Below are positions 41,925 to 58,465 of a stretch of DNA of 64,000 nucleotides, piece after piece. This DNA is from Longimicrobiales bacterium (GTDB lineage: Bacteria > Gemmatimonadota > Gemmatimonadetes > Longimicrobiales > Gaopeijiaceae). Location: assembly GCA_965116905.1 (NCBI GenBank), contig OZ220732.1, positions 4,000,001-4,064,000 on the forward strand, given 5' to 3'. Position 1 is the stretch's first letter; each line of letters opens with the position of its first letter. The notes under the pieces are model-generated. The model did not search any database. It worked only from the letters and a program-made list of their open reading frames with translations, and was not told the DNA's origin. The position numbers were made by a program, and so were the translations under genes.

Positions 41925-41926
41925 CC

Positions 41927-43204
41927 GTGCTCCTGCGCGTCCTGGTCCGGCTCGCCCTCAGGAACCTGCGCCGTCATCTGCGTCGCACGGTGCTGACTGC
42001 CTCGGCGATGATGGTCGGCGGCGCATTCCTGGTCTGGTCGATGACGATCGATGACGGCAGCCACGAACAGTGGGTCGATTCCGGTGTGCGCATGGGGAGC
42101 GGACACGTGACCATCGAGCGGCCCGAGTACCGGCTGCGCCGCCAGATCGACGACCGGCTGCCGACGGACGTCAGCCGCGCCGCGGAGCAGGCACTGGCCT
42201 CTCCCGAGGTCGCGCGGCACGTCGTGACCGTGTCCGCCAAACTCGGTATCAACGGCCTGGCGAGTTCGGCGGCCGGTGCCCGCCCGGCGGAGATCGTGGG
42301 GGTCGATCCCGTCGCCGAAGCGGCCTTCGGCACAATCGACGATGCGGTGATCGAAGGGCGCTACCTCGAGCCCGATGATCGGCTGGCGGCCTATGTCGGC
42401 GCCGATCTGGCCCGCAGCCTTGGACTCGAGATCGGATCGCGCTTCGTCGTGCAGGCGCAGGGCACCGATGGCGAGATTGCGGGGCAGCTGCTCTACGTCA
42501 TAGGGATCTTCCGCAGTCGCGTGCCCGCCATCGACCAGGCGACGATTCACGTCACGCTCGCGACAGCCGGCGAGTGGCTCGGTTCCGGTAGCGACGTGAC
42601 CAACGTCGCGGTCGTGCTGCAAGGCAGCGGCAGGACCCGGTGGGTCTCCGACCGCCTGGCGCGGGCGCTGGCGGAGCCGGTGGAACGCGGCGAGGCACGC
42701 GTCGTAGAGTGGCGCGAGGCGAACCCTGTCCTGGCGGCAGGGGTCGCGATCGACGAATTCGGCAACTACGTGATTCAGGGGTTCCTGTTCGTCATCATCG
42801 CGTTCGCGATCGTCAACACGGTGCTGATGTCGGTGATGCATCGCCAGCGCGAGTTCGGCGTGCTTCAGGCGCAGGGGCTGACGCCGGGTCAGACGGGCAC
42901 CGTCGTGCTCATCGAAGGCCTCACGCTATCCGCGGTCAGCGGGCTCGTCGGCGTCGGCCTGGGACTCCTGGGCACCTGGTATTTCTTCGGCGACGGTTTC
43001 GACTCGTCGGTCTTCATGCGGGGTATCGACGAGTTGACATTCTCGGGTGCCGCCGTTGATCCCATCATCGTGCCAATCTTCGGGGTACGACGCATTGTCC
43101 AGGTTGTCGCGTTCATTCTCGGCATTGGCATTCTCGCCTCGGTCTATCCCGCGCTGCGCGCCGCCCGGGTCGACGTTACCGAGGCGATGAAGTTCGATCG
43201 GTAG
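41927..43204 (+). CDS. ABC transporter permease, FtsX/MacB/LolE-like (second paralog)
   Basis: ALRNLRRHLRRT, NTVLMSVMHRQREFG, YPALRAA; GTG 2 nt after the previous stop. Confidence 0.9.
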   Translation: MLLRVLVRLALRNLRRHLRRTVLTASAMMVGGAFLVWSMTIDDGSHEQWVDSGVRMGSGHVTIERPEYRLRRQIDDRLPTDVSRAAEQALASPEVARHVVTVSAKLGINGLASSAAGARPAEIVGVDPVAEAAFGTIDDAVIEGRYLEPDDRLAAYVGADLARSLGLEIGSRFVVQAQGTDGEIAGQLLYVIGIFRSRVPAIDQATIHVTLATAGEWLGSGSDVTNVAVVLQGSGRTRWVSDRLARALAEPVERGEARVVEWREANPVLAAGVAIDEFGNYVIQGFLFVIIAFAIVNTVLMSVMHRQREFGVLQAQGLTPGQTGTVVLIEGLTLSAVSGLVGVGLGLLGTWYFFGDGFDSSVFMRGIDELTFSGAAVDPIIVPIFGVRRIVQVVAFILGIGILASVYPALRAARVDVTEAMKFDR

Positions 43205-43210
43205 GAGGTC

Positions 43211-43912
43211 ATGGCAATGAGTAAAACGGCAGCCGCCCGGACCGACGGCGTCTGGAAGGTCTTCCAGCAGGAAGCTGAATCCGTCGAGGCGGTCCGCGAC
43301 GTCAGCCTGACCATAGAGCGTGGCGAGTTCACCGCGCTTGCGGGACCGTCGGGCTCCGGCAAGACGACGCTGCTGAATCTGATCGGTGGCCTGACCAGCC
43401 CCACAAAGGGACGGGTCTGGGTGGCCGGGCACGAGGTGAGCCGCATGTCGACCCGGGATTTGGCGCGGCTACGGCTCGAGGAGGTTGGCTTCGTCTTTCA
43501 GGCCTATAACCTGCTCCCCGTGCTCACGGCATTGGAGAACGCGGAATTCCCGATGCTCCTCCAGGGCGTGCCCGTGAAGGAGCGTCAGGCGCGGGTCCGC
43601 GAACTCTTTGCGCGAACGGGCATGGAAGGGCTCGAAGACCGGCGCCCGGGCAAGCTGTCAGGCGGCCAGCAGCAGCGCGTCGCCGTCGTCCGTGCGGTGG
43701 CTGGCCGTCCGGCCCTCGTGCTTGCGGACGAGCCGACGGCGAACCTCGACTCGGTCACCAGCGAAGCGCTCCTCGATGTCATGGGCGAGCTGAATCGCGA
43801 CCTCGGAGTGACCTTCGTCTTCGCCACCCACGACAGCCGCGTCATGGAGCGGTGCCGGCGTCTGGTCCGCATGGTCGACGGCGCTGTGCGTGACGACGAG
43901 CCCGGATCCTAG
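43211..43912 (+). CDS. ABC ATP-binding protein, LolD/MacB-like
   Basis: GPSGSGKT, GFVFQAYNL, LSGGQQQR, LADEPTANLD, ATHD. Confidence 0.95.
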   Translation: MAMSKTAAARTDGVWKVFQQEAESVEAVRDVSLTIERGEFTALAGPSGSGKTTLLNLIGGLTSPTKGRVWVAGHEVSRMSTRDLARLRLEEVGFVFQAYNLLPVLTALENAEFPMLLQGVPVKERQARVRELFARTGMEGLEDRRPGKLSGGQQQRVAVVRAVAGRPALVLADEPTANLDSVTSEALLDVMGELNRDLGVTFVFATHDSRVMERCRRLVRMVDGAVRDDEPGS

Positions 43913-43933: not shown

Positions 43934-45226
43934 CTAGCAGCCTAGACCCTGGGACACCTGGGCATAGCTGGTAAGCGGGACCGCGCACATCCGATGCCAG
44001 TCCTCCTGGTCGATGACGGGTTGGTTCAACAGTTCAATCATCTCGTCGAAGTCATGGAGCGCGGAGCACCCCACCACCGCCGGGTCCGCTGCCTGCCGGT
44101 GTCGTGGCCAGGCGCGGTCACGAGCATGGCGCCAGAAGCCGCTGTTGTACCTGGAGCCGCACGAGTAGTGCCAGCCGACGAACAGGCCGTAGCGGATCAT
44201 GTTGTTGATGAGGAACCGATTGACCACGGGCGCGTCGCGCTCGAGATGCTCCGGCGGACGGCTGAGGCGCGTCCGGAGCACCATCCCGATCTGCAATTGG
44301 GCGGATACGATCGCCGTTGCCTCGAGCGGCTCCATGAAGGCCGCTGCGTTGCCGATGCGGGCCACGGCACCGTCGTAGATCCGACGGTGGACGAAGTTGG
44401 GAAACCCGATGACGGCGCGCTGCTCAAACTCGGACACGCCGTCGGCCTCGAGGAGCCTGTCAAAATCCGATTCGACGTCGACCAGGCTCGACAGGTTGCC
44501 GTTGAAGACGTACCCGTAGGATGTGTGGGCAGTGAGCGGAATCACGAATACCCAGCCGTGTCGACGCGCAACCGCGCGCGTGTACGTGTGCTGGAGCACC
44601 GGTCCATCCCGCTCTTCGCTGAAGACCGGCGGACAGCGGCGTATGACGGCCGTATCGGTGGGGATGAAGGGAAGGTCGATGTGCTGGTCGGGACGGAGCT
44701 CCCTGGGGAACCCGCGCGCATCGAACACGAGGTCGTACCGTTCCGGCGGCCGGCCCTCGAATTCCACGCGAGCGCCGCCACTCACCCTGGTGATATCGAG
44801 TACCCTCGCATCGATGTGCCGCGCGCGCGTGCCTTCGTGGAGCAGGTCCGCCATCAGGTCGGCGGACAGGTGGTAGGCGTAGGACACCTGCTGCGGCGTG
44901 AAGTAGTGGGTGAAGTCCCGATCGCGTCGGCCCCATCCCTCGAACGCGACACCGTACTTGCGAGTCCCACTCAGGCGCTGCTGTACGGTGTCGTGCGGCA
45001 GACTCGTCAGCTGTTGCAGCTCCCGAACCAGGCTCGGCCAGCTGCCTTCACCGACTCCGATCACCGGGATCCGCGAGTCGTATATGTGGTGCAGCTCGTG
45101 ATCGCTGTCGGGATGAAGACGCGTCACGCTGGCGGCCGCCAGGCACCCTGCGGTCCCTCGCCCCACAACCGCGATCTTCCGTAGGGATTCGCTCTTCCGT
45201 AAGGACTCGGTGCCTGGGTGTATCAC
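43934..45226 (-). CDS. srpI: Flavin-dependent tryptophan halogenase family (putative peptidyl-Trp brominase)
   Basis: VVGRGTAG (GxGxxG), IGVGEGS, TRKYGV (catalytic Lys position), FDARGF, GWVFVIP (WxWxIP variant), IGNAAAFMEPLEAT; GTG start after GGAGG. The symbol is recalled from the srp cluster. Confidence 0.88.
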   Translation of the reverse strand: MIHPGTESLRKSESLRKIAVVGRGTAGCLAAASVTRLHPDSDHELHHIYDSRIPVIGVGEGSWPSLVRELQQLTSLPHDTVQQRLSGTRKYGVAFEGWGRRDRDFTHYFTPQQVSYAYHLSADLMADLLHEGTRARHIDARVLDITRVSGGARVEFEGRPPERYDLVFDARGFPRELRPDQHIDLPFIPTDTAVIRRCPPVFSEERDGPVLQHTYTRAVARRHGWVFVIPLTAHTSYGYVFNGNLSSLVDVESDFDRLLEADGVSEFEQRAVIGFPNFVHRRIYDGAVARIGNAAAFMEPLEATAIVSAQLQIGMVLRTRLSRPPEHLERDAPVVNRFLINNMIRYGLFVGWHYSCGSRYNSGFWRHARDRAWPRHRQAADPAVVGCSALHDFDEMIELLNQPVIDQEDWHRMCAVPLTSYAQVSQGLGC

Positions 45227-45367
45227 CCCAAATGCCCTCCACGACCGTCGACTGCGGGACTCTTCGATGTGCCGCGGACAGCAAGCTAACACGATCTTCG
45301 CATCATCGCCGTCGGCGCGGCTCTCGTCGTTTCCTTGGGGGACGAGGTCTGCACCGTTCACCCGAGG

Positions 45368-45376
45368 TGTTATACT
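45368..45376 (+). promoter_or_regulatory. Extended -10 promoter (TGnTATACT) for the NHLM export/maturation operon
   Basis: TG-T-TATACT in the divergent intergenic region, 57 bp before the GTG at 45433. Confidence 0.5.
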
Positions 45377-45432
45377 ACCCGGCGAGACCGGTCCGTCCCT
45401 GCTTGATCGTGATGAGGAGTCTGTGTGGAGCC

Positions 45433-45984
45433 GTGTTCAATAACCCGCTTGGTTCGTTTCACAATACCGTTGCCGAAGCAAAGGAAGAACGCGAGCAACT
45501 CGACCGTCTGCTGACGGTTTCCACACCGCGAGAGCGCCTGCTTGTCACAGTCATCGCTCTTGTGTTGGTCATCTTCATCACCTGGCTCTTTTTCGGCAGC
45601 GTAGCCCGTAGCCTTGCGATCGACGGCGTACTCGAGGAGTCCGGCCAAAACCTGTCCGAAGCCGCCCAGTCAGTGCAGGCGCTGGTCTGGATCGAGAACG
45701 ACGTTCTGCCCGAGGTCAGGGCCGGGATGCCGGCGTCGATCGAACTGGGCGGGGCGGATGGAGACGCGGGCACGATTGGCGGAGAGATTACGATGATTTC
45801 CGCTGTCCGCCTGCCCGAGCTTCCAGCGGCCTTCGAGTCCGCAGTGCCGGCCTCCGTCCATCGCGTCCAGATCGCGCTCGACGAAAGCCCCGACTCTTCC
45901 TTCGTTGCGGGCCGGGAATGCCGGATCGTCATCGAAATCGGCACCCAGGCTCCGATCGCACTCCTGCGACTGGGGCAACCATAG
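45433..45984 (+). CDS. Short NHLM-system secretion (HlyD-like) accessory protein
   Basis: EQLDRLLTVSTPRERL, one TM ending WLFFGSV...DGVL, and a C-terminal beta domain ending QAPIALL. At 183 aa it lacks the long coiled coil. Confidence 0.72.
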   Translation: MFNNPLGSFHNTVAEAKEEREQLDRLLTVSTPRERLLVTVIALVLVIFITWLFFGSVARSLAIDGVLEESGQNLSEAAQSVQALVWIENDVLPEVRAGMPASIELGGADGDAGTIGGEITMISAVRLPELPAAFESAVPASVHRVQIALDESPDSSFVAGRECRIVIEIGTQAPIALLRLGQP

Positions 45985-45985
45985 C

Positions 45986-48199
45986 ATGCCGTCGATCGCC
46001 TTCAGAGGAGTTGGCGACAAGAAAGCCGCCGGGTTCAAGGCAAAGCACAGGATCACCACGCCCATTGTGCTGCAGGTGCATGCGTCGGAGTGCGGTGCCG
46101 CCTGCCTCGGCAGCATCCTCGGCTACTTCGGACGCTGGGTTCCGCTGACCGAGCTGCGGGAAAGATGCGAAGTGAGTCGAGACGGAAGCAGTGCGGCGAG
46201 CATCGTGCGCGCCGCCAGACATTATGGTCTCGAATCCAGCGGACTCAGTTTGCGCGCCGATCAACTGAAAAAGCTGCCGTTGCCGCTGATCGTGTTCTGG
46301 CAATTCAGTCATTTCCTCATCGTCGAGGGGTTCGACGGCCGCAACTTCTATCTCAATGATCCGTCCACGGGACGGCGCAAGCTTTCCGCCGAGGAGTTCA
46401 CCCGGGGCTACAGTGGCATTGCGCTCCGATTCAAGCCGGGCCCCGACTTCAAACCCGGCGGTGAACGGCCCGGACTGGTCAGACAACTGCACGCCCTGCT
46501 CGCCGGATCATGGGGCGTGCTCACCTGGGTGATCGCGTGCGGCCTCATGTTGACGCTGCTGGCCCTCATTGTCCCCGCATCTCTGGGCGCATTCGTGGAC
46601 GATGTGCTGGAAGACCGGGGGCCCTGGGGCGGCATCGTGACGGCACTGCTCGGCGGCGGCGTCCTCGTCTATATCCTGTCCCTGCTCAAGCACCGGTTCC
46701 TGAAGCGACTCGCAGTCCGGATTTCGGTGACCGGCTACAGTCGTGGCTTGTCGCGGCTGCTGCGGTTGCCGGTGGAGTTCTTCGAACACCGGCTCGTGGG
46801 CGATCTGACGGATCGAGTCTCGTCCATCGACAGGATCGCGAGGAATCTGACGGAGCAGTTTCTTGTGCTCGTTATCGACATGGGAATGAGCGCCGTGCTG
46901 CTTGCTGCCATGTTGGTCTACGACGTCCGGCTCACACTGGTCGTGCTCGTTCTGGCCGTTATGCATGGCGTGCTGGCGCACTTTCTGAACGGCGTCAGAG
47001 CCGTTCGAAGCCAGGCGATGAGACGCGAACAGGGACTGCTGATCGGCATCGGCATGCAGATGCTGAGCCATGCCGACAACCTGCGCATGACGGGATCGGA
47101 CGACCATTTCTTTTCGCGGTGGACCGGTCATCAGGCGCGCGAACTGCATGCGCGCCAGCGCTACTCGGAGCTGGGCTCCGTCAATGCCGCGCTTCCGGGT
47201 CTGATCGTCGCCCTTCGAGGCGCGGCGATCCTGGGCATCGGCGGAAGTCTGGTCCTGGCCGGGGAAATGACCCTGGGGGCGCTGGTCGCGTTCTACATCC
47301 TGAGCGAAATGTTCCTGGCGCCGGTCGGGCGATTCCTGGAGTTCGCCGAGAAGCGCCAGGCCCTCGAAACCGATCTGCAGCGACTCGAAGACATCTCCAG
47401 GACCGCCGAGGACCCCGCCCTCATCCGCCAAAGTCAGCACTCCGAGTCGATTCCGACTTTCAAGGGCCAGCTTCAGCTCGCCGGCCGGCTTGAGCTGCGA
47501 GACGTCACCTTCGGGTTCAACAAGAGCCGGCCGGCTCTCATCAAGGACTTCAACCTCCTGATCAGGCCGGGGCAGCGGGTTGCCGTGGTCGGTCCGAGCG
47601 GTTCCGGCAAGTCGACCCTCGCGCGTCTGATTGCCGGTGTCTACCAGCCCTGGTCGGGCGACATCCTGTTCGATGGCTATCCGCGGGATGAGATTCCCGA
47701 TGGGGTGCTGCGGCAGTCCATCTCCATGGTGGATCAGGAGGTGGTGCTCTTTTCCGCGTCCGTGCGCGACAACATCACCCTGTGGAACCCCGCCGTTCCG
47801 GACGAGGCCATCTTCGCGGCGGCGCGCGACGCCCGGATCCATGACGAAATCCTGCTTCGGCCGGATGGGTACGCCACGCGGGTCGATGAGGGCGGCGTGA
47901 ATTTCAGCGGCGGCCAGCGGCAGCGGCTGGAGATCGCCCGCGGGCTGGTGGGCGATCCCACGCTCCTCATTCTGGATGAGGCGACCAGCGCCCTCGATGC
48001 CGCGACGGAGGAATACGTCGATGATGCCCTGCGCCGTCGGGGTGTCACCTGCCTGATCGTGGCGCACCGGCTGAGCACCGTGCGGGACAGCGACGAGATC
48101 ATCGTGCTCGACAAGGGCGTCGAAGTGCAGCGCGGGACGCACGACGAGCTGATGGGGGATCGGGACGGCACCTACTACAAGCTGGTCAGATCCGGCTGA
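45986..48199 (+). CDS. NHLM-type peptidase-containing ABC transporter (C39 + TMD + NBD)
   Basis: LQVHASECGAACL (Cys), WQFSHF (His), LNDP (Asp); GPSGSGKST, FSGGQRQR, ILDEATS. Confidence 0.95.
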   Translation: MPSIAFRGVGDKKAAGFKAKHRITTPIVLQVHASECGAACLGSILGYFGRWVPLTELRERCEVSRDGSSAASIVRAARHYGLESSGLSLRADQLKKLPLPLIVFWQFSHFLIVEGFDGRNFYLNDPSTGRRKLSAEEFTRGYSGIALRFKPGPDFKPGGERPGLVRQLHALLAGSWGVLTWVIACGLMLTLLALIVPASLGAFVDDVLEDRGPWGGIVTALLGGGVLVYILSLLKHRFLKRLAVRISVTGYSRGLSRLLRLPVEFFEHRLVGDLTDRVSSIDRIARNLTEQFLVLVIDMGMSAVLLAAMLVYDVRLTLVVLVLAVMHGVLAHFLNGVRAVRSQAMRREQGLLIGIGMQMLSHADNLRMTGSDDHFFSRWTGHQARELHARQRYSELGSVNAALPGLIVALRGAAILGIGGSLVLAGEMTLGALVAFYILSEMFLAPVGRFLEFAEKRQALETDLQRLEDISRTAEDPALIRQSQHSESIPTFKGQLQLAGRLELRDVTFGFNKSRPALIKDFNLLIRPGQRVAVVGPSGSGKSTLARLIAGVYQPWSGDILFDGYPRDEIPDGVLRQSISMVDQEVVLFSASVRDNITLWNPAVPDEAIFAAARDARIHDEILLRPDGYATRVDEGGVNFSGGQRQRLEIARGLVGDPTLLILDEATSALDAATEEYVDDALRRRGVTCLIVAHRLSTVRDSDEIIVLDKGVEVQRGTHDELMGDRDGTYYKLVRSG

Positions 48200-51138
48200 T
48201 GCGGGACACGAGGCCGGAGCACACGTCCATTGCGGAACTCGCCACCAGCGCGGGCGAGTCCGTGCCCTGCGCCGGCAACCTGCCCGTGAAGCTCGACGAC
48301 CCGGACTCCGTCTGGTTCATCGACGAGGGCGCCGTCAATCTGTTCCTGGTCGAATTCAGGGACGGGTTGGATCATGCGGCACCCCAGCACCTGCTCCGCC
48401 GCGAAGCGGGCTGGCTGCTGCCGGGCGTCGCACCCAACGAACCGCACGGGGCGGAAGATACCACGCTCAGCCTGGTCGCCAAGGGATCGCCGGGCACCAT
48501 TCTGAAGCGCCTGCCGGCATCCCTGCTCTCCGAGGTCGATCCGGCGGAGCTGGCGGAACAGACGGAAACCTGGCTGGCCGCGATCACGGACACCCTCTCG
48601 CGCTTTGCGAGTCACCGTCCACGGCCGACGGCGCTGGCCGAGCCCGGTCTGACACGGAGCCTCGCCCCCTGTACGCTCTCCGTACGACGAGGCGTCGTAT
48701 GGGTATCCGAACCCCCACGCGGCGCCAGCCTCTTCATGGACCTGGTCGACCAGGCGGCACTTACCGGAGGGAGCGGCCCGCACGAAGCGCTGATACCGCT
48801 GACGCGGGCAAGCTGGCTCACGCTCTCGGACGAGGTAACGCTCTCGGCCAGTTCGACCGAGACACTGGCACGGCAGGGCACCCTGCTCTCGGCGCTCGCA
48901 TCCTTTCACGCGGTCGCCTTCGCCGTGGAGCGCCTGAACCGCGTACTGGCCGTAGTCGACCACGCGAATCTCGAACGCGCGCGGACCACGAGCCGCTACG
49001 CGGCCGAGAGAACTGCGCGGCAGCGGCTTTTCAACATCTATGACCTGCCGATCGACCGGGACGCGAGTGTCGAGGACACGTCGCTGGCGGACGCGCTGCA
49101 GCCGATCGGACGCCGTGAAGGGATTGATTTCAAGATCCCCGTGCGCCCGGGATCCTCCGGTGCCCCGGTCAGCCTCGTCGACGTCCTCGTCGCTTCAGGC
49201 GTGCGCGCCCGGCGCGTGCGGTTCACGAACGAGGGCGCCTGGTGGCGGGGCGACAGCAACGCGATGCTGGCGTTCCGCGCCGAAGGCGGCCAGCCTGTGG
49301 CGCTCCTGCCGGGATGGTTCGGGCGCTACCGGGAATTCGACCCGGTCAGCAAGCGTAGTGTCCGGATGACGGCGGATCGTGCCGCCGCGCTGGCGGACGA
49401 GGCCTGGGTGTTCTACCGGCCGCTGCCCGAGGGGAACGTGAGGCCGGCGGACCTGCTGAGATTCGCGCTGCGTGGATCGGCCGCGGATCTGGCGCGGCTG
49501 GTGATGGCCGGCCTTCCGGGCGGCCTGATCAAGCTGGTGCCCGCACTCGCGCTCGGGTTCGTCGCAAACCAGACGGCGGGCGGCGGAACCGCCGGAGCGG
49601 TCTATGCCGCGGCCGTGGCGGTGGCGGGCTTCGGCGTGCTCGGCGCCCTGCTGCACCTGCTTCAATCCACGGCGATGACGCGGCTCGAGGGGCGCTCGGC
49701 TTCGCGCGTCGAAGCGGCGTTCTGGGACCGCCTCATGCGCCTTCCGCCAAGCATTCTGCACCGCCATCCGTCGGGCGATCTGGCCATGTCGGGGATGACG
49801 TTCCAGAATCTCCGCGACGGGTTGCAAGGCGTCGTTGCCGACGGCCTGCTATCGATCCTCTTTCTGCTTCCGGTTCTTGGTGTCATCTTCCTCTACGATG
49901 CCACCCTCGGGGCCATCGCCCTCGCCTTCAGCCTGGTTTCGCTCCTGATCACGGTTGTCCTCGGACTGCGCCAGGTTCCCCCCTGCGGGCGGATGATCCG
50001 CGCGGCGCGGCGCGTCTCCGGCCGGTTGTTCCAGATCGTGGGCGGCATAAGCAGACTGCGTGTGGAAAACGCGGAAGCGTCCGCTTTCGCCATGTGGGCG
50101 CGGGACTACCGGGAGCAGAAACGCGCCGAGCTCGAAATGGCCGGGCTCGAGGGACATTCGCGCGCATTCGGCGCCGCGCTCCCCTTTCTTGCCGCCGGGG
50201 TCCTGCTGGCGGTCGTGGCCGTGGGCGACAGGGACCTTCCGGTGGGCGATTTTCTCGTCGTCTACCTCGTCCTCATCGCCTTCCAGTACGCCATCGCCCG
50301 ACTCGGCGAATCCCTTGGCACGGTCGCCGCCATGCTCCCGGGGTTCGACCAGATGCGCCCGCTCCTCGCCGCGGCTCCCGAGACCGAGGCCGAAGGAGCG
50401 CCGGTCGAGTATCTGGGCGGCGACATTCTCTTCGACCGCATTTCCTTCCGGTACGATCCCGACGGGCCGCTGATCCTGGACGATGTCACGATCCGCGCCC
50501 GCCCCGGAGAATTCATCGCGATCGCGGGTGAGTCCGGCGCCGGCAAGAGCACCCTCTTCCGGCTGGCGCTCGGATTCGACCGGCCCACCGCCGGCGCGGT
50601 CTATTACGATGGACGCGACCTGAGGCACCTGAACCTGAAGCAGGTGCGCCGCAGAATCGGCGCGGTGCCGCAATCCGTCGGCCTGCATCCCCTCGATATC
50701 TGGGACAATCTCGTCGGTCACCACGATAAGGTGGCGAGTGACGAGGTATGGGCGGCGGCGCGAGTCGCCAACGTCGAAGAAGAGATCAAGAGCATGCCGA
50801 TGGGCATGATGACCATGGTCGGCACGAGCGGAAGCGTCCTGTCGGGCGGCGAGAGTCAACGTGTCACTATTGCCCGGTCGGTGATCGGCAGCCCGCAGAT
50901 CATGCTCTTCGACGAGGCCACCAACTGGCTGGACAACGAGAGCCAGGCCAATGTCATGCGGAATCTCAACGCCCTGACCTCGACCCGGGTTGTTATCGCG
51001 CACCGCTTGTCCACCCTGGAACAGGCCGATCGCATCTACGTGCTGCAGGCCGGAAAAGTCGTACAGAGCGGCTCCTTCGACGAACTCTTGGAGGGCGACG
51101 GGGTGTTCAGGGAGTTGGTGAAAAGGCAGATCGCCTAG
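48199..51138 (+). CDS. NHLM-type second ABC transporter subunit (no peptidase)
   Basis: N-terminal cNMP-binding-like segment (VWFIDEGAVNLF), SGVRARRV...WW, FYRPLP, TMD, GESGAGKST, LSGGESQR, FDEAT; coupled to the previous gene. Confidence 0.92.
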   Translation: MRDTRPEHTSIAELATSAGESVPCAGNLPVKLDDPDSVWFIDEGAVNLFLVEFRDGLDHAAPQHLLRREAGWLLPGVAPNEPHGAEDTTLSLVAKGSPGTILKRLPASLLSEVDPAELAEQTETWLAAITDTLSRFASHRPRPTALAEPGLTRSLAPCTLSVRRGVVWVSEPPRGASLFMDLVDQAALTGGSGPHEALIPLTRASWLTLSDEVTLSASSTETLARQGTLLSALASFHAVAFAVERLNRVLAVVDHANLERARTTSRYAAERTARQRLFNIYDLPIDRDASVEDTSLADALQPIGRREGIDFKIPVRPGSSGAPVSLVDVLVASGVRARRVRFTNEGAWWRGDSNAMLAFRAEGGQPVALLPGWFGRYREFDPVSKRSVRMTADRAAALADEAWVFYRPLPEGNVRPADLLRFALRGSAADLARLVMAGLPGGLIKLVPALALGFVANQTAGGGTAGAVYAAAVAVAGFGVLGALLHLLQSTAMTRLEGRSASRVEAAFWDRLMRLPPSILHRHPSGDLAMSGMTFQNLRDGLQGVVADGLLSILFLLPVLGVIFLYDATLGAIALAFSLVSLLITVVLGLRQVPPCGRMIRAARRVSGRLFQIVGGISRLRVENAEASAFAMWARDYREQKRAELEMAGLEGHSRAFGAALPFLAAGVLLAVVAVGDRDLPVGDFLVVYLVLIAFQYAIARLGESLGTVAAMLPGFDQMRPLLAAAPETEAEGAPVEYLGGDILFDRISFRYDPDGPLILDDVTIRARPGEFIAIAGESGAGKSTLFRLALGFDRPTAGAVYYDGRDLRHLNLKQVRRRIGAVPQSVGLHPLDIWDNLVGHHDKVASDEVWAAARVANVEEEIKSMPMGMMTMVGTSGSVLSGGESQRVTIARSVIGSPQIMLFDEATNWLDNESQANVMRNLNALTSTRVVIAHRLSTLEQADRIYVLQAGKVVQSGSFDELLEGDGVFRELVKRQIA

Positions 51139-51236
51139 CAGTCCGTGGATAAACCCACGCGAGCACCGAGAGCGGCGAGGCGCCGGGCCGGATGCATTCG
51201 CCGCTCGAATGCCGCGGGGGTTTGTTCACGGGCTGC
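51138..51236. repeat. ~100-bp long-hairpin / MITE-like element
   Basis: Terminal inverted repeats GCAGTCCGTGGATAAACCCACGCG and CGCGGGGGTTTGTTCACGGGCTGC (20/24 matches; three mismatches are G-U compatible); inner stem GAGCGGCGA/TCGCCGCTC. Confidence 0.7.
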
Positions 51237-51265
51237 CTGATCCGAATCCCTCTCCGGAGACATCG

Positions 51266-52564
51266 ATGAACGGATCGATTGACGCGCACACCCTCGTATC
51301 GAGAGCCGACAAGGACAGCGACTTTCGCGAACGTCTTCTCCGGCACCCCAGGGAAACCGTCGAGAAGGAATTCGGCGTGACGCTGCCGGAAGACCATGAG
51401 ATTCACGTACACGAGGAGACCTATGGCGCGACACATGTGGTGCTTCCGCCGCGGAACAGGTTCAGCGAGGCCGAGCGGGAGGCGGCCAGGACCGGCAGGG
51501 CATCGCTCGAGTATCTTCGGAGTACTCTCCACGATCCCGCACCGCCCCTTCGTTCTCCGGCACCGAAACGAGGCGAAGTCCGAAGCGGCGGGGCCGGCTC
51601 CGAGGCGCTTGCAGAGGCGGCGAGGGAAGGGATCCGCCGAGGGCTTGCCTTCCTGGAATCCACAATCGACGAGAATGGGGCTTGGCACTGCATCCGGTTC
51701 AACGTTGCCGACCCGGACATTCCCAGGCACTTCGAGAGGCCTCCTTTCGTGTCGGCTCTCTGCGCGCTCGCCCTTGAGAGATCCGATGAGCCGCGGGCCA
51801 GGGCGATATGCACGGCGACGAAGGCGTATCTCATCGACACCATCGAGTATCCCGGACTGTGGCGATACTACCGTCACCTGCCCCCGGATCTCGACAGTAC
51901 CTCGCTCTGTGCGATGGTTATCGGGACGCACCCCTGGATCTGGCTCGGACGGAATGTTCCCGGGATACTGGCGAATCGCGACGAGGAGGGCCGCTTCATG
52001 ACCTGGGTGCTGGCGGAAGACGAACCCGATGTCGTGTCGCCGTTTCGCATCGAGGCCGACCCCGTCGTCAATGCGAACGTCATCGCCTGGCTGGGCGACC
52101 GTCCGGAAACCAGGGATGCCCAGCGATGGTTGGAACACCTGGTGACCGATGGGAGCCTGGAGGGCTCGTCGAAATGGTATCCCGACACGATCTCGATCCA
52201 CTATGCGATCGCCCGCGCGACGGTTCGCGCAAAGCCCGCCCTCGAGGCGTTGCGCCCGATGCTCGCAGATCGTATCCTCGGCCTCCGTGACCGGAAGGGA
52301 GGATTCGGCAACGTTCTTCAGACCGCTCAGGCGGTGTCGGCGCTCTACAGTGTCGGAAGCCTCGGGCGCATCGACGTGAAGCGGGAGGTGGAGGGGCTGA
52401 TGAACTCGCAGCGCGGGGACGGCAGCTGGCCGGAGCTGCTCGCGTTCGGCGACCAATCGTTGAAGTGGGGTTTGGTGGGGCAGATCGGGCATGGCTCCGA
52501 GGCCGTGACCTCCGCGTTCTGTATCGAGGCCCTGGAGTGTCTCGTCGAAGGGCTTGGGGCCTGA
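51266..52564 (+). CDS. NHLP-leader domain fused to a prenyltransferase/squalene-cyclase-repeat (class II terpene cyclase-like) domain
   Basis: Residues 1-77 align with the precursor leader (DSDFRERLLRHP...EFGVTLP...IHVHEE...HVVLPP). The rest has QW-like repeats (FLESTIDENGAW, LRDRKGGFG, MNSQRGDGSW), PPDLDSTS at the DxDD position, VVNANV and GSEAVTSAFCIEAL. Confidence 0.8.
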   Translation: MNGSIDAHTLVSRADKDSDFRERLLRHPRETVEKEFGVTLPEDHEIHVHEETYGATHVVLPPRNRFSEAEREAARTGRASLEYLRSTLHDPAPPLRSPAPKRGEVRSGGAGSEALAEAAREGIRRGLAFLESTIDENGAWHCIRFNVADPDIPRHFERPPFVSALCALALERSDEPRARAICTATKAYLIDTIEYPGLWRYYRHLPPDLDSTSLCAMVIGTHPWIWLGRNVPGILANRDEEGRFMTWVLAEDEPDVVSPFRIEADPVVNANVIAWLGDRPETRDAQRWLEHLVTDGSLEGSSKWYPDTISIHYAIARATVRAKPALEALRPMLADRILGLRDRKGGFGNVLQTAQAVSALYSVGSLGRIDVKREVEGLMNSQRGDGSWPELLAFGDQSLKWGLVGQIGHGSEAVTSAFCIEALECLVEGLGA

Positions 52565-52566
52565 GC

Positions 52567-54888
52567 GTGCCCACCGATACGGCGCGCGCGGGCCCACGGC
52601 CCGGGATCCTGGCCCGGACGACTCTCGCGGACCGGGGCATCGTCAAGCTTCCCGCGCTCACCCCGCACCTTCGATTCCACGATATCGGCGAGGGGCGGGT
52701 GCTCCTCGTCTCCGAGTCGTTCAATACGCTGCTGCACGGCAAGCTGTACGGCGACTTGCTGCCGCTGCTCGACGGCCGGCACGCCGGGGACGAGATCGTC
52801 GCGGCCCTCGAGGGCGCCCACGCGCCCACCAACGTCCTGGCGGCCCTGGCCGCGTTCGCCGCCAAGGGGTACCTGGTCTCCGCCGATCACGGGATGGACC
52901 TGTGCCAGGCAGCCTACTGGTCGTCGCTCGGGGCGTCGCCACGCTGGGCCGAGGAGCGGCTGGCGCAGGCGCGCGTCACGGTCGAGGGTGACGACGGCCG
53001 GCTCGCCCGGCATCTGGAGGAGGCCGGCGCCAGCGTGGGAGGCACCGGTCCGGCGCTGACCGTCGTCGTCTGCGCCGACTATCTCGATGCGCATCTCGCC
53101 GAGGTGAATCGGCGCCAGCTCAAGGCGAGAGCGCCGTGGACCCTGGCGCGGCCGAGCGGGATGGAGCCGCTGTTCGGCCCCATCTTCCGCGCTGACGGGC
53201 GGGGGCCTTGCTGGGACTGCCTCGCATGCCGCCTGCGCAGCCACGGGGAAGTCCACGCTTTCCTGCGCAACGTCGCCGGCGAGGAAGCCGCCTTCAGGCC
53301 GTTCGCGGCCCAGCCGGCCGCGCTGGGAGCAGTGTACGGGCTGATCGCGGCGGAGATCGTCAAATGGCTGGTGCTGGATCAGGCGGCCCCGATTCACGAA
53401 CAGGCGATCGCGATGGACATCGCCACATTCACGAGTTCGCAGCACCGGGTCGTGCGCAGGCCGCAGTGTCCGGAGTGCGGCGACGAGGCCCTGCGCCGGC
53501 CGGATCGACCGCCCCTTCCGGTGTCTCTGAAGGCGAGCCCCAAGGCCCATCGCAACAGCGGCGGCGCGCGCGCCGTGCCGCCGGGAGCCACCCTGGCGAA
53601 GTACCGGCATCTGGTGAGCCCGGTCAGCGGCGTCGTCACCTGGCTGTCGCGCACCACCGATGAGACCGACTCCTGGCTGCACGTCTACTGGGCCGGGAGC
53701 AATTCCGGGATGAGAAGCCGAAGCCTGAGTTCGCTGAGGCGCAGCCTGCGCAGCAAGAGCGCCGGCAAGGGCAGCACCCGGCAGCAGTCCAGGGTCAGCG
53801 CGCTTTGCGAGGCGATCGAGCGGCATTCGGGCGCCCGCCATGGGGACGAGATCCGTGTTGCCAGGCGATTCATCGAGTTCGCCGGGCGAGAAGAGGCGAT
53901 CCACCCCAACGATGTGCAGCTGTTCAGCGAGAGTCAGCTCGACGACGCGGAGAGCATCAACGCGAAGGGCCACCCCTACAACATCGTCCCGCCACGTCTC
54001 GATCCCGACGCCGAGATCGATTGGACCCCGGTCTGGTCATTGACGCAGCGGCGGCACCGGTACCTGCCCACGTCCATCCTGTACAGCATGCTGGCCGAGG
54101 AGCGCGGCCCTGCGGACCTGATTGCCGATTCGAACGGATGCGCCGCGGGCAACACCCTTGAAGAGGCGATCCTGCAGGGTTTCTACGAACTGGCCGAGCG
54201 CGATGCGTTCGCCGTCTGGTGGTACAACCGGCTGCAAGTGCCGGCGGTCGATCTTTCCAGCTTCGACGACGAGTACCTCGAATCGGCCGCGGACTACTAC
54301 GGCCGCCATGAGCGGGACCTGTGGATGCTCGACGTCACCTCCGATATCGGCATTCCCACCTTCGTCGCGCTCTCGCGTCGGCCGAACGCCGAAACCGAGG
54401 ACATCATCTACGGCGCCGGCACCCACGCCGACCCGCGGATCGCCGCCCTGCGCGCGCTCTGTGAACTGAACCAGTGCCTCACCTGGCTGCCGCGTCCCGG
54501 GGCGGCGGACGGCCGGCCCAGGATCGACGATCCGCTGGCGCTCCGGTGGTGGAAGACCGCCCGCCTCGCCGAATGTTCCTGGCTGGCGCCGGCGCCGGAC
54601 GAGCCGCTCCGCAGGGCTTCGCAGTATCCGGTGACCGAAGCGGCGGACACGCGCGAAGATGTGGAATACTGCCGCTCGCTTGTCGAAGCCAGGGGCATGG
54701 AGTTCCTGGTGCTCGATCAGACGCGGCCGGATATCGGCATGCCCGTGGCCCGGGTCATCGTGCCGGGCATGCGCCATTTCTGGGCAAGGTTCGCGCCCGG
54801 GCGCCTGTACGACGTGCCCGTCCATCTGGGGTACCGCGAGCACCCGCTCTCCGAAACCGGCCTGAATCCCGCACCTGTGATTGCGTGA
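52567..54888 (+). CDS. srpC: Fused E1-like/YcaO cyclodehydratase (TOMM C-D fusion)
   Basis: N-terminal RRE-like region, GPCWDCL and PQCPECG zinc sites, SAGKG, CEAIER, SNGCAAGNTLEEAILQGFYELAERDA, C-terminal LNPAPVIA. The symbol is recalled from the srp cluster. Confidence 0.94.
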   Translation: MPTDTARAGPRPGILARTTLADRGIVKLPALTPHLRFHDIGEGRVLLVSESFNTLLHGKLYGDLLPLLDGRHAGDEIVAALEGAHAPTNVLAALAAFAAKGYLVSADHGMDLCQAAYWSSLGASPRWAEERLAQARVTVEGDDGRLARHLEEAGASVGGTGPALTVVVCADYLDAHLAEVNRRQLKARAPWTLARPSGMEPLFGPIFRADGRGPCWDCLACRLRSHGEVHAFLRNVAGEEAAFRPFAAQPAALGAVYGLIAAEIVKWLVLDQAAPIHEQAIAMDIATFTSSQHRVVRRPQCPECGDEALRRPDRPPLPVSLKASPKAHRNSGGARAVPPGATLAKYRHLVSPVSGVVTWLSRTTDETDSWLHVYWAGSNSGMRSRSLSSLRRSLRSKSAGKGSTRQQSRVSALCEAIERHSGARHGDEIRVARRFIEFAGREEAIHPNDVQLFSESQLDDAESINAKGHPYNIVPPRLDPDAEIDWTPVWSLTQRRHRYLPTSILYSMLAEERGPADLIADSNGCAAGNTLEEAILQGFYELAERDAFAVWWYNRLQVPAVDLSSFDDEYLESAADYYGRHERDLWMLDVTSDIGIPTFVALSRRPNAETEDIIYGAGTHADPRIAALRALCELNQCLTWLPRPGAADGRPRIDDPLALRWWKTARLAECSWLAPAPDEPLRRASQYPVTEAADTREDVEYCRSLVEARGMEFLVLDQTRPDIGMPVARVIVPGMRHFWARFAPGRLYDVPVHLGYREHPLSETGLNPAPVIA

Positions 54889-54895: not shown

Positions 54896-56008
54896 ATGGA
54901 TACCGACGCGGCCGTCGCACTGACCCAGGACCGTCTCGCCGAGGAGGGCGACACGATGGGTGAGCTGCTCGGGCACTTCCGAAATCGAATCTCGCCGGTC
55001 CTGATCGGAGATCCGCAGTGGGAGCGCATACTCGAGCGCGCCGGAAAGCTCCCCATCACAATGGGCGCGCTGCCATTCGGTTTCGAACTGCCGCTGCATG
55101 CAAGCGAGCCCAGGGCGGACTTCGGCGTCTCCCTCGCGAGCGGAACGAGAACGGCGGCCTTTTTCCAAGCGCGCGCACGCACCGACGCGACGGATGAGAC
55201 CGCGAGGGTGATCACGCGGCTCTTCGGCCGGATGGAGACGGAAGACTCGCCCCTGCGTGGGATTGTCGGCCGCAAACTGATGCTGGAATACGATATCGGC
55301 TCGGCAGGAGACGGTGAGCGTTCACTTCCGGGAATGTTCCTCCGGCCCGGTGAACGCCCGATTCTCGGCGCCCGCGGCCAGGTGGATGATGTCCGTGCGG
55401 TCGCGGACGCGCTGTTCTCCTGCGCAGGCTGGGAGATGAGCGGCCCCGAGCGCGAGAACATCGAACGGGTCTACCTGGCACAGCCGGGAGACACGCGCAT
55501 GGATTCGTTCGGTGTGTTCCCGTCGCGCTCGCGGTTCATCCGCCTGGCGATCATGGGCTTCAGATCGCGGCACGCGACGTGGTGCTATCTCGAAGACGCC
55601 GGCTGGCCGGGTCATATCCCGGCTGTCGACTCCCTGATCGCGCGCTTCGACGAGCGCGCGAGCATTCGCAGGACCGGGGTGAACATCGATGTGCGGGAGG
55701 AGGGCGTCGGACCGACGCTCGGCCTCACGCTCATCGTCAAGCAACGTTATACGAAGGACTCGCGCTATTGGCTCGACGGCCTGACCGATTGGCAGCCGTT
55801 CCTGGAGGCCCTGGGCCATGAGGACCTTGTCGTTCCGGAGAAGCTCGGGGCGCTTGCCGGCTGGGTCTCGAAGCCGACAACGCTCTTTGGGAAGTCCGGG
55901 CGGTTCGTGCTGCTGCGTGGCATTCACCATATCAAGCTGGTCGTATCCGGAGACCGGCTTCGACAAGCCAAGGCCTACGTGTTCATGGTGCTTTCCGGGG
56001 CGGTGTAG
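54896..56008 (+). CDS. Hypothetical protein; candidate ABBA (PT-barrel) peptide prenyltransferase
   Basis: GAGGAG RBS directly after YcaO; five apparent beta-hairpins separated by helical segments. The CDS is secure; the function is inference. Confidence 0.6.
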   Translation: MDTDAAVALTQDRLAEEGDTMGELLGHFRNRISPVLIGDPQWERILERAGKLPITMGALPFGFELPLHASEPRADFGVSLASGTRTAAFFQARARTDATDETARVITRLFGRMETEDSPLRGIVGRKLMLEYDIGSAGDGERSLPGMFLRPGERPILGARGQVDDVRAVADALFSCAGWEMSGPERENIERVYLAQPGDTRMDSFGVFPSRSRFIRLAIMGFRSRHATWCYLEDAGWPGHIPAVDSLIARFDERASIRRTGVNIDVREEGVGPTLGLTLIVKQRYTKDSRYWLDGLTDWQPFLEALGHEDLVVPEKLGALAGWVSKPTTLFGKSGRFVLLRGIHHIKLVVSGDRLRQAKAYVFMVLSGAV

Positions 56009-56032: not shown

Positions 56033-58465
56033 TTAGCGTCCCGTCCCGAAGTTCGGCGCGAGCGTCTCGATCCCCGCGGCGGCGCCCGATGCGGTTTCCT
56101 CGATCACCGCGGCGAGCGCATCGAAATCGTCCACCCCGCAGAGGCCGGCGATCGTGGCCCTGGCTCCGGTGGCCGCCGATTCGACCTCGAACCCCTCGTC
56201 CGCGACAAGCCGCAGCGCGCCGCGGAGATTCCGCCACAGCGCCGCCGCCGCCGCGAGCCGCTCGGCGGCATCCTCAGTGATCAACCCACGATCGCCCGCC
56301 GCCCGGAAAGTGTGCTCCGCGTCGCCCGCCGGACGTGCCGCCGCATCGCCGCCGGGCGCCATGCGCAGGAACAGCGCGGCGCGTTCGATGTCTCGAAGAC
56401 CTCCCCGCATCGTGGCGATCGACTCCAGGTCCGGTACGCCGGTTTCGGCGGCATGCTCTCCGGGCTTGCGCAATTCAGCCAGCAGCATCTCGCGAACCGA
56501 AGGTCCGCCCAGCGCCTCGCGCAGCCCTACGGACACCCGTTCCGCAACGTCCTCGTCGCCCGATCCCCACACGCACCGGGCCCGCGCCAGACCCACCGGA
56601 TCCCATCCCGAACCGGGGTTGCGGAGTTGTTCGGCGAATGCGTCAAGCGGCTGGATCTCGCCCGCCCCGCCACGCGTGAACGATTGGGGCGACAGCAGCA
56701 GGTTGTTGCGGGTCAGCGCGCGCAGCGCCTTCCGGAAGCGGCCGCACAGTTTCCGATAGTGCCTGGCCGGGGTTCCCTCGTACACGAACCGGATGTCGAG
56801 CGTCTCGCCCGGCATCGCTTCTCCGCTCGCCAGGGGTCCCTCCACGACGACCGCCACGCCGCCGCTGCCCTGCGGCACACCGCGATCGGCAAAGTCCTCC
56901 TCTACCGCGGACAGCACGGTGGCGATGGAGGCCTCCCCGACGCGTGACAACGCCGTCACCGCCTCGGCGATCGACAAGCTCCCGCGCATCGTGTGCACCG
57001 CGATCTGGAAGACCTTGCCGTTCGACCACTCGCGCGCCGCATCCACCGCCTCGCTGGCGTCCTGCACGTGAGTGTCGGCAAGCTGGGCCTTCATCTCGGC
57101 CACGCCGAGTTCGTGGGTCCAGTACAGGCGTGCCAGTCCGCACCGGGCAATCGCCTCGGATTCCGGGTCCGACAGGAAGCCCTCCGGGAGCTCCAGATCC
57201 GTGAACTCCCGCTCCCTGAGCATGTCGAGCAACACCGGGGCACGGTTGATCCATCCGGCAATGCGAGGAGCGGCGGCGTGAATCTCGGCGATCGCGTCGA
57301 ATGCGTCGGGGCGTGCCGCGAACGCCCGGCTGTCATAGGCGCTCCAGTCCTTGATGTCGGGATAGAACTGCGCCCGCTGAAGATCGAGCAGGGGGTCGAT
57401 GGTCTGGAACCACCGCTTGGGGAAGAGGGCCAGGCCGTTCATCTGAATGTAGCTGCCCGGCAGCTGCGGCGAGGCGGCCTCGTTGTGATGCTGAAGCAGC
57501 GGATAGCGCCGGTTCGACGTGTGGTGGTCGGCGTGGCGCTGCATGTTGTAGTACAGCCAGTTGGTGAACTTGTAGGCCGCGCTCCAGGCGTGCCGCGGCT
57601 TGACGGGCTCGAACCGGCCGGCCGGCGTGAGGACCCGTCGCAACCCGTAGTGCTGCACATAGTTGCTGATCTTCATCGAGAATACGACGTTGCCGCACAG
57701 AACCACGTAGACCAGGGCTGCCCACGGACCGCCCATCCAGAGTATGATCCCGTACCAGAAGATGAGCTGCACGGCGTAGCGCCAGAACGCGTTCGTATGG
57801 TGCCATGCCGGCAACTGGCGACGCGTCAGGCGGCGGCGTTCGAACCGCCAGGCCCCCAACAGGTTGTTCGCCACCTCCGCGGGCAGGTATCGCCAGAAGC
57901 TCAGACCCTTCGGAGAGGACCCCGGGTCCCGGGGCGTGCACACCCACGGATGATGAATGTAGACGTGCTCGGTTGCATAGTGCGGGTAGGAGACGGAAGC
58001 CAGCAGGAACTCGCCGAGGCGACGCTCCCAGAGAGCGCGGCGGTGGACCAGCTCGTGGCCGACGATGAAGACGGTCTGTCCCACCATCGTGAGAATCACG
58101 GCCACGCACCAGACTTCCCACAGCGCCAGATGATCGGAAACCAGTGCCTGCCAGAGCGCGAAGATGAACGTGGCCGGCCAGAGCACCGCCCAGAGCCAGA
58201 GCGAGAGCTTGTACAGAAACAGCTGGCTCTCGCTGGTGGTGGCCGGATCCATGTTCCGCTCCTCCAGGCCGAATATCCTGTCGAAGCGGTCCGCGAGCGC
58301 GTAGAAGACCAGCGGCACCGCGATCCACCAGCCACCGAACACCGCGGCGCACGCGACGAGCGGAAAGATCGCAAGGGGCGCGAAGTGTGGGAGCGCATTC
58401 GCAACGGAAGCCTCGACGATTCTCCGTTCCATGGCCACGGGGGGACTCGTACTGTGTGCTTCCAT
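56033..58465 (-). CDS. AlkB-type membrane di-iron monooxygenase fused to a degenerate GlnE-like adenylyltransferase domain
   Basis: AlkB boxes GHELVH, EHVYIHH, NYVQHYGL, NMQRHADHH, PQLP.SY. C-terminal ~420 aa resembles GlnE AT (P.LLDML, ALSRVGEA.I..VL..VEEDF, VAVVVEGPLA..E, LDIRFVY, ARAR, RGGLRDIE). ATG at 58465 inferred. Confidence 0.78.
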   Translation of the reverse strand: MEAHSTSPPVAMERRIVEASVANALPHFAPLAIFPLVACAAVFGGWWIAVPLVFYALADRFDRIFGLEERNMDPATTSESQLFLYKLSLWLWAVLWPATFIFALWQALVSDHLALWEVWCVAVILTMVGQTVFIVGHELVHRRALWERRLGEFLLASVSYPHYATEHVYIHHPWVCTPRDPGSSPKGLSFWRYLPAEVANNLLGAWRFERRRLTRRQLPAWHHTNAFWRYAVQLIFWYGIILWMGGPWAALVYVVLCGNVVFSMKISNYVQHYGLRRVLTPAGRFEPVKPRHAWSAAYKFTNWLYYNMQRHADHHTSNRRYPLLQHHNEAASPQLPGSYIQMNGLALFPKRWFQTIDPLLDLQRAQFYPDIKDWSAYDSRAFAARPDAFDAIAEIHAAAPRIAGWINRAPVLLDMLREREFTDLELPEGFLSDPESEAIARCGLARLYWTHELGVAEMKAQLADTHVQDASEAVDAAREWSNGKVFQIAVHTMRGSLSIAEAVTALSRVGEASIATVLSAVEEDFADRGVPQGSGGVAVVVEGPLASGEAMPGETLDIRFVYEGTPARHYRKLCGRFRKALRALTRNNLLLSPQSFTRGGAGEIQPLDAFAEQLRNPGSGWDPVGLARARCVWGSGDEDVAERVSVGLREALGGPSVREMLLAELRKPGEHAAETGVPDLESIATMRGGLRDIERAALFLRMAPGGDAAARPAGDAEHTFRAAGDRGLITEDAAERLAAAAALWRNLRGALRLVADEGFEVESAATGARATIAGLCGVDDFDALAAVIEETASGAAAGIETLAPNFGTGR

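Follow-up and report, generated by a model that had tools for sequence, protein, structure and literature searches.

The window analysed here, a stretch of 64,000 nucleotides from a Longimicrobiales bacterium (contig OZ220732.1), carries on its reverse strand a gene that joins an AlkB-type membrane diiron oxygenase to a decayed C-terminal portion of the adenylyltransferase GlnE (the module), and this fusion is a core gene of the srp cluster beside it, a cluster for a peptide made on ribosomes and modified after translation (a RiPP), of the LCCCW proteusin kind. Our tentative reading, which we place somewhat short of probable, is that the AlkB-fold enzyme hydroxylates or desaturates an isoprenoid tail added to the peptide by a predicted ABBA prenyltransferase, and that the GlnE half serves on the cytoplasmic side as a rigid scaffold or a surface for docking. 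In a broader form, which we hold possible but with more doubt than confidence, an AlkB-fold enzyme would have been recruited for RiPP tailoring (oxidation of a prenyl tail, or flavin-free conversion of thiazoline to thiazole), the dead GlnE would be a portable docking module carried by the oxygenase and by RND pumps in sponge symbionts, and the true srp product would be prenylated and oxidised. The features of the gene are as follows, with the ratio of nonsynonymous to synonymous substitution rates (dN/dS) where it was determined:

56033..58465, reverse strand: the fusion gene (P0001, 810 aa), AlkB-fold oxygenase plus decayed GlnE module, from Pfam, Protein Data Bank (PDB), homologue and model matches
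57311..58465, reverse strand: AlkB-type membrane diiron domain, aa 1-385, with PDB matches, nine His, a putatively remodelled channel and dN/dS 0.12-0.19
57644..57664, reverse strand: NYVQHYG motif, aa 268-274, with Q at the iron-proximal Glu of AlkB (E281 of 8sbb aligned)
57101..57310, reverse strand: aa 386-455, corresponding to the tail of GlnE's central region and holding a clade-specific insert of ~28 aa, from the alignment, dN/dS 0.07-0.18
56795..56839, reverse strand: decayed nucleotidyltransferase motif G543-X11-T555-L-D557, from the family profile and alignment
56033..56545, reverse strand: C-terminal helical bundle, aa 641-810, GlnD_UR_UTase-like by Pfam, dN/dS 0.32-0.77

Translation of 56033-58465 (-) yields 810 aa with zero internal stops, confirming the single uninterrupted frame of the preliminary description. 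The frame stays open further upstream, up to a GTG at 58876 that overlaps a neighbouring MFS gene; we dropped this longer, 947-aa start and place the start at the ATG at 58465 because the homologues begin there (P0002, for instance, has 810 aa and is 91% identical). Pfam assigns FA_desaturase to residues 115-342 (E 2e-22), GlnE to 458-639 (E 1.5e-10, above the cut-off) and GlnD_UR_UTase to 687-778. An AlphaFold2 model built from 128 sequences reached a predicted local distance difference test score (pLDDT) of 93 and a predicted template modelling score (pTM) of 0.92, the latter suggesting that the oxygenase and GlnE halves pack as a single unit, and its top Foldseek matches were 8f6t, 8sbb, 1v4a and 3k7d.

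The same fusion recurs elsewhere, and the concern that it might be a unique chimera is thereby answered. A homologue search returned 789 proteins, and the best 120 of these, from which the figures in this paragraph on homologues are taken, are all fusions of 608-830 aa with 58-91% identity, 116 of them with both the FA_desaturase and the GlnE Pfam domains; those with names come from Palauibacter, other Gemmatimonadota and Acidobacteria. A scan of GTDB gave 30 fusion loci, among whose titles Chloroflexota, Vicinamibacteria and Acidimicrobiia appear as well; three loci titled 'Gammaproteobacteria' (L021, L022, L033) were not scored as a separate phylum, and the family sample drawn around one of them (G304, L021) adds little since it overlaps, in the same contigs, the family sample of the window itself. 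The read support called for near ~57.3 kb came from a contig of a public run (X2, record 23) that covers 57011-57401, and with it the domain junction, with 0 differences, and an RNA-library contig of a relative (X19, record 14) covers 57014-57553. Taken together, the fusion homologues, the GTDB loci, the class genomes described below and the junction-spanning contig rule out a misassembly. Two genomes hold two fusion copies each (G024, L073-L075; G302, L028 and L132). Because trees of the AlkB half and of the GlnE half both separate the same deep group, the data fit one old fusion event.

The N-terminal half has the AlkB membrane fold. In the PDB its sequence matches AlkB 8f6t (E 8e-52) and 8sbb (E 2e-36), and the model matches the same structures by Foldseek (E 4e-16, template modelling score to target 0.72-0.78) at ~30% identity to Fontimonas thermophila AlkB and AlkB-AlkG. 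All nine His ligands of the AlkB diiron centre are present in their four boxes (H137/141, H167/171/172, H272, H311/314/315), as had been noted together with the NYVQHYG motif at 268-274, and they are invariant across our alignment, of which 69 rows are close, 13 are deep and 25 are standalone. The conserved Glu of NYxEHYG, the iron-proximal Glu271/E281 of AlkB (PMC10113152, PMC10110569), is absent, with Gln in 121/121 close homologues. The same position holds Gln in 9/13 deep fusions (Glu in the other 4) and also in 6/25 standalone AlkB-like proteins, and the variant is for that reason only weakly diagnostic: we no longer regard the change from E to Q as a signature unique to the fusion, and NYVQHYG is less special than had been supposed. 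An aromatic residue is retained at the position of W62 of AlkB, where the fusion has F54, which suggests a short hydrophobic tunnel.

Positions assigned to the substrate channel by sequence alignment differ from those of AlkB. Relative to standalone proteins the close family has exchanged G for Q130, I for F133, L for M264, E for K265, L for Y305 and L for M308, and 12/13 deep fusions have Arg at the position of K265. The Leu-lined alkane channel (L274, L315 and L318 of 8SBB) is thus replaced by M264, Y305 and M308, with a conserved Lys/Arg and Gln (K265, Q130) in addition; L274 and L318 place the alkane in FtAlkB, the Fontimonas enzyme (PMC10110569). On this alignment the channel appears remodelled, which makes alkanes an unlikely substrate. 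In the tree, a branch (SH-aLRT 89) separates the fused AlkB domains, all on one side, from 33 standalone proteins. The closest standalone relatives are annotated as alkane 1-monooxygenase (30-44% identity). Unlike the described AlkBs, the fusion has a 425-aa GlnE-derived module as its partner instead of rubredoxin and sits in a RiPP cluster. No rubredoxin (PF00301) was found in the 97%-complete, one-contig host genome, compared with 7/14 control genomes in which it was found, and the electron donor would accordingly be something other than rubredoxin, probably a general ferredoxin. The host genome also encodes a second, unrelated FA_desaturase (L004, G000:C1:406230-406976). Among the homologues, a protein of 332 aa (P0307) shares 79% identity with a stretch of the AlkB domain and has an NHase_alpha (NHLP-like) Pfam match, possibly the result of a frameshift fusing neighbours.

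The GlnE likeness of the C-terminal half has stood, although the module starts earlier than had been stated, within the tail of GlnE's central region (near residue 386). With a profile built from 62 family members, the adenylyltransferase domain of E. coli GlnE (3k7d) is matched at E 5e-17, and Pfam, the profile and Foldseek agree on a Pol-beta-type adenylyltransferase fold with homology to GlnE; the central-region tail, the fold and remnants of RAR..G and GGL.D.E are all shared with the E. coli structures 3K7D and 1V4A. The architecture of GlnE, in which a central regulatory domain links two homologous domains, is lacking, with the C-terminal part only being represented (PRK14108, 78 bits vs a cut-off of 724). 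In further contrast to GlnE, the module is without the N-terminal domain, has a dispensable last bundle and is fused to a membrane protein. Its DxD, RxRP and W.WE have been lost, as have the Lys and the third Asp.

The loss of catalytic residues extends across the family. The GlnE motif, given as G-X11-D-X-D in PMC12409994, reads G543-PLASGEAMPGE-T555-L-D557 in the fusion protein, which bears out the decay to GPLA..E...ETLD described earlier. An intact DxD is found in 30/30 intact GlnEs vs 0/20 AlkB-fused and 0/6 RND-fused modules, and in 3/121 close homologues. The Asp of D-x-R-x-R-P is the third catalytic Asp of GlnE, and this motif is present in 30/30 GlnEs, 0/26 fused modules and 0/121 close homologues; all of the 121 lack the third Asp together with the Lys and the RxRP arginines. 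The position of the first Asp is occupied by Glu in 89/121 close homologues, by Thr in the window protein and by A, K, P or R in others, and the second Asp is kept in 109/121. These losses support the earlier proposal that the nucleotidyltransferase of the module is dead.

What has been retained is a different part of the module. Pairwise dN/dS values, computed in four groups of related loci from pairs that are not independent, were 0.12-0.19 for AlkB, 0.07-0.18 for residues 386-455 and 0.14-0.23 for 456-530, rising to 0.29-0.45 in the nucleotidyltransferase core and 0.32-0.77 in the last bundle. Purifying selection on residues 386-530 is thus the same as that on the oxygenase, and residues 386-455, which are common to the RND fusions and the insert-bearing intact GlnEs introduced below, are the most conserved part of the module. 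Moreover, many members are without the final helical bundle: 26/121 close homologues have just 600-720 aa, with frames of 668-699 aa occurring in near-complete genomes (G016, G044, G108, G109). The dN/dS gradient and the short homologues together argue that the helical junction, rather than the nucleotide site, is the conserved element.

A rigid scaffold would be compatible with this pattern, and of the two roles previously offered for the module, ligand sensing or scaffolding, we favour the latter. The C-terminal domain of intact GlnE binds ATP and glutamine cooperatively, and glutamine binding needs MgATP, as outlined in 10.64898/2026.09.02.748916. Since the ATP/Mg site is eroded, the last bundle is often lost, glutamine binding depends on MgATP and a search of the host genome (97% complete) found no PII gene, against one in 13/14 control genomes, the module would be a scaffold in preference to a ligand or nitrogen sensor, and a role as PII sensor in particular is disfavoured.

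Where the module came from can be read, with some caution, from a ~28-residue insert. A search of cluster representatives yielded four intact and apparently active GlnEs (P0145, P0150, P0161, P0176) with the same insert where the central and adenylyltransferase domains meet, and these GlnEs enclose a single branch (SH-aLRT 100) made up of 20 AlkB-fused and 6 RND-fused modules, in a quick tree that kept the insert columns and has long branches, such that the nesting may be inflated. The insert-bearing GlnE clade is therefore the likely donor, as judged from the shared insert and the tree. An origin by recent copying of the host GlnE was dropped, there being no mutual tblastn match at E 0.01 and the host GlnE lying outside the clade and having no insert. 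The full-length host GlnE itself (L070:9323-12226 (-), G000 at ~2.727-2.730 Mb) has decayed motifs in both domains and may be a second pseudo-GlnE; it adjoins an anti-sigma/STAS pair, an ammonium transporter and a circularly permuted ATP-grasp/alpha-E pair, and the sole Gln-synt_C match of the host genome is partial (profile positions 8-168 of 344).

The dead module is also found on another type of membrane protein. Five AcrB-family RND proteins of ~1520 aa (P0160, P0175, P0153, P0169, P0181), named from metagenome-assembled genomes of Gammaproteobacteria, end in it. A metagenome scan with P0160 as query gave no match, and one with the alignment as query gave one locus, which has no srp genes within 10 kb:

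L086:10001-14575, forward strand: RND fusion locus, with an HlyD-type gene upstream

The cluster that borders the oxygenase fusion in the window has the three hallmarks of srp, an NHLP precursor with an LCCCW core, a YcaO protein and a PF04820 Trp halogenase, and we identify it as an srp cluster (described in PMC10286304, PMC10858898 and 10.1101/2023.06.09.544420). Its genes are:

40275..40526, forward strand: srpE-type NHLP precursor of 83 aa with core LCCCW, from leader and core sequence
40668..43912, forward strand: two LolE/FtsX-type permeases and a LolD-type ATPase, from library matches
43934..45361, reverse strand: Trp-halogenase-family gene (PF04820, E 1e-41), called srpI-like from its likeness to the published description and not from an alignment
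45232..51138, forward strand: HlyD-like gene followed in the list by two NHLP ABC exporters, of which the first has a C39 peptidase, from library matches
51209..52564, forward strand: NHLP leader domain (TIGR03793, E 5e-13) fused to a squalene-hopene-cyclase-like domain (PF13243, E 2e-5, weak and under the cut-off)
52465..54888, forward strand: YcaO cyclodehydratase (PF02624, TIGR03604), srpC-like
54896..56008, forward strand: gene of 370 aa without a Pfam or NCBIfam match and with a predicted ABBA prenyltransferase fold, from fold comparison

The precursor shares with SrpE its length of 83 aa, the NHLP leader with ITEEQL and the LCCCW core, and the YcaO protein, the flavin halogenase and the sponge-symbiont hosts from several phyla complete the likeness. 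The cluster differs in that the literature description, as far as the cited parts go, covers SrpE, SrpC and SrpI and leaves the fusion and the prenyltransferase-fold gene unmentioned. The fusion gene and the operon end converge, as had been observed before; 24 bp separate the gene from the stop at 56008.

The link between fusion and cluster, previously a guess, proved stronger than expected. In a class sample of 301 genomes, 35 matched the fusion query and 30 remained after removal of 5 standalone AlkB or GlnE matches. The precursor occurs in exactly the same 30/301 genomes, a close YcaO in 29/30 (distant YcaO proteins occur in 6 other genomes) and the prenyltransferase-fold gene in 28/30, with one weak match outside them; an apparent lack of the latter gene at some loci was an artefact of flank length, as it is present in 5/5 such genomes. 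Within the genus of the host, 11/25 relatives have all four of fusion, precursor, YcaO and prenyltransferase-fold gene and 14/25 have none of them. In 27/30 genomes the fusion has YcaO or the precursor within ~15 kb on its own contig, and srp genes flank the fusion in many gene orders in 25/30 GTDB loci, which overlap the class sample. Its position at the cluster edge holds only for the lineage of the window; in two Acidobacteria loci (L132, L133) the operon includes the fusion, which shares its strand and is placed between the NHLP-fused gene and YcaO. At four others (L127, L128, L130, L131) it has been relocated together with two LolE-like permeases. The cluster link thus holds through many rearrangements and several phyla.

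Two further samples were consulted. Among 91 genomes of a Vicinamibacteria family, 10 carry the fusion, and the 7 best precursor scores all fall in fusion carriers; 16 other genomes of this sample have weaker NHLP matches and no fusion. One carrier (G618) has a one-contig genome with no precursor match and a frameshifted fusion that adjoins an integrase-like gene (L129:8800-10600 (+)), suggestive of what remains of a lost cluster. In an Acidimicrobiia order sample (n=201) the fusion and a close YcaO were found in the centre genome alone, in weak agreement with the cluster link.

The clusters come in two types, and the comparison of the fetched loci bears on the substrate. The first type has an LCCCW core, the halogenase and the cyclase-like gene, the NHLP-cyclase-like fusion (as at 51209-52564) being confined to LCCCW-type clusters among the loci seen. 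In the second type the cores are LCCCG, LSCCx or LSCSG, several clusters have an RND pump, and the halogenase and cyclase-like gene were absent from the loci fetched; these cores read LCCCG, LSCCA, LSCCT, LSCCL, LSCCGL and LSCSG (L024, L029, L031, L032, L035, L071, L072, L075-L077, L134-L136). Both types retain YcaO, the exporters, the 370-aa gene and the fusion, and all 21 short precursors printed have a core that begins with Leu, followed by Cys or Ser. The persistence of the fusion beside Trp-free cores without a halogenase argues that its substrate is not bromo-Trp, and a dependence on bromination was dropped on this ground.

The 370-aa gene, a core gene in both cluster types, has a predicted activity that could supply the substrate of the fusion. 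Its model (pLDDT 86) matches the prenyltransferase MpnD (4yla) with Z 16.9 over 300 aligned residues at a root-mean-square deviation (rmsd) of 4.8, and the top 19 fold matches are all prenyltransferases, the next match having Z 5.6; we predict from this model that its product is an ABBA prenyltransferase. Such enzymes prenylate other RiPPs (PMC12715784), and the arrangement resembles that of the cyanobactin (PagF) and lanthipeptide (MppC) pathways outlined there, in which a soluble ABBA-fold enzyme is encoded beside a RiPP precursor. For prenylated RiPP pathways we found no downstream membrane diiron oxygenase in the literature searched, and for prenylation in srp clusters the search yielded nothing relevant. 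One Acidobacteria locus has a geranylgeranyl-reductase-family flavoprotein between YcaO and the fusion (L134:10037-11398 (-); TIGR02032, 165.7 bits vs a cut-off of 158.8), and two further loci (L135, L136) have a gap of the same size at its position. The L134 cluster has acquired an inserted S-adenosylmethionine methyltransferase (L134:5715-6581 (+)).

We propose the following sequence of events. YcaO would cyclise the core Cys residues, and in LCCCW-type clusters only the halogenase would brominate the Trp, both steps being in print, the former for SrpC and SrpE. The product of 54896-56008 would then, judging by its fold, prenylate the core. The greasy product could next enter the membrane channel of the fusion, where the polar and basic replacements might hold the peptide end while O2 oxidises the chain. 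C39-ABC exporters remove leaders and export products, and this pair would accordingly release the mature compound. The earlier idea of a terpenoid appendage as substrate has gained indirect backing from the co-occurring prenyltransferase-fold gene.

Several observations weigh against oxidation of a prenyl tail as a dedicated srp step. The genomes compared are kin, so that the co-occurrence counts are not independent events, and the locus contexts cover the closer fusions and not the deepest AlkB fusions (28-52% identity). Of the 10 Vicinamibacteria carriers, 3 have no precursor match (G660, G629 and the frameshifted G618), and in G639 and G654 the fusion lies beside two permeases on a different contig from the cluster. 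The dead module is not specific to the peptide pathway, given that the same module sits on an RND pump away from srp genes. The prenyltransferase call is one of fold, at 6-12% identity and rmsd >4 Å, and TIGR02032 is a broad family whose reductase was identified in one locus only.

These points leave room for other explanations. The fusion might act on the peptide core itself, either converting thiazoline to thiazole in place of a flavin dehydrogenase or hydroxylating a methyl group of the invariant N-terminal Leu. We keep this option open because no SagB-type azoline dehydrogenase (TIGR03605) was found in the host genome and all cores start with Leu; likewise, a by-eye reading of the recurrent neighbour clusters of the fusion recognised none as an azoline dehydrogenase, the channel is polar and basic, and enzymes of the AlkB superfamily can bifurcate to desaturation (PMC10110569). 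It is nevertheless doubtful in our judgement: published descriptions of the srp product have thiazolines (PMC10286304, PMC10858898), a leader-bearing peptide is hard to fit into a membrane tunnel, F54 suggests a short hydrophobic tunnel, and the prenyltransferase-fold gene tracks the fusion almost perfectly. Alternatively, the fusion could belong to the cluster yet oxidise a separate lipid or terpenoid (the product of the NHLP-cyclase-like gene, or a host or membrane lipid), the module coupling it to a partner or a small-molecule signal. The relocations with two LolE-like permeases, the presence of the module on RND pumps and the binding of ATP and glutamine by the intact GlnE domain (10.64898/2026.09.02.748916) speak for this possibility, which we consider unlikely given that the fetched loci with non-Trp cores keep the fusion without a cyclase-like gene, that the host genome yielded no PII gene and that the metal and ATP residues on which glutamine binding relies are lost.

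Two simpler ideas fare worse. That the gene encodes a plain alkane or fatty-chain hydroxylase hitch-hiking on a mobile island, with the GlnE part a relic, would accord with the alkane 1-monooxygenase annotation of the closest standalone relatives and with the drifting C-terminal bundle (dN/dS up to 0.77), but it is very improbable in the face of a presence/absence pattern that matches srp through many rearrangements, the in-operon position in two loci, a host genome in which no rubredoxin was found, the remodelled channel and the constraint on residues 386-530 (dN/dS 0.07-0.23). Nor is it to be expected, except as the remotest of these options, that the C-terminal half is an active nucleotidyltransferase with a shifted site (E-x-D) that adenylylates the peptide or a partner. 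The frequent Glu at the first and the retained Asp at the second position would permit it, and a pseudo-enzyme can conceal AMPylase activity, as the example of SelO shows (PMC12409994), but the window protein has Thr at the first position and others A, K, P or R, the Lys, third Asp and RxRP arginines are gone throughout, and the nucleotidyltransferase core is less constrained than the helices preceding it.

Oxidation of a prenyl tail would, if correct, have consequences for srp chemistry, of which cyclodehydration and bromination are the only steps described in the parts of PMC10286304, PMC10858898 and 10.1101/2023.06.09.544420 at issue. Clusters of this kind are reported to be widespread and highly transcribed in sponge microbiomes, with their ecological role unknown (10.1101/2023.06.09.544420). 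The oxygenase and the prenyltransferase-fold gene, both retained in variant clusters that have an RND pump and cores free of Trp, are conserved at least as tightly as the halogenase and predict further steps that tell chemists which masses to seek in sponge extracts and which genes to co-express. The natural product would then be prenylated and oxidised, unlike the structure deduced so far, a membrane diiron enzyme would join the RiPP toolbox, and GlnE would clearly exemplify how a domain of an enzyme becomes a non-catalytic module that can be reused. The two halves, like the cluster, are of known kinds; neither the combination nor a role of an AlkB-fold enzyme in a RiPP pathway was found in the literature searched, with the proviso that the founding srp gene map (PMC8780398), outside our search, may list the gene.

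Two genes beyond the cluster complete this part of the window. The first flanks the fusion in close relatives only and is for this reason probably chromosomal context, and the second encodes a protein of 768 aa:

58573-59811, reverse strand: MFS transporter like the Tet(A/B/C) family, below every Tet cut-off, from a library match
61360-63666, reverse strand: ankyrin-repeat protein with acidic low-complexity stretches

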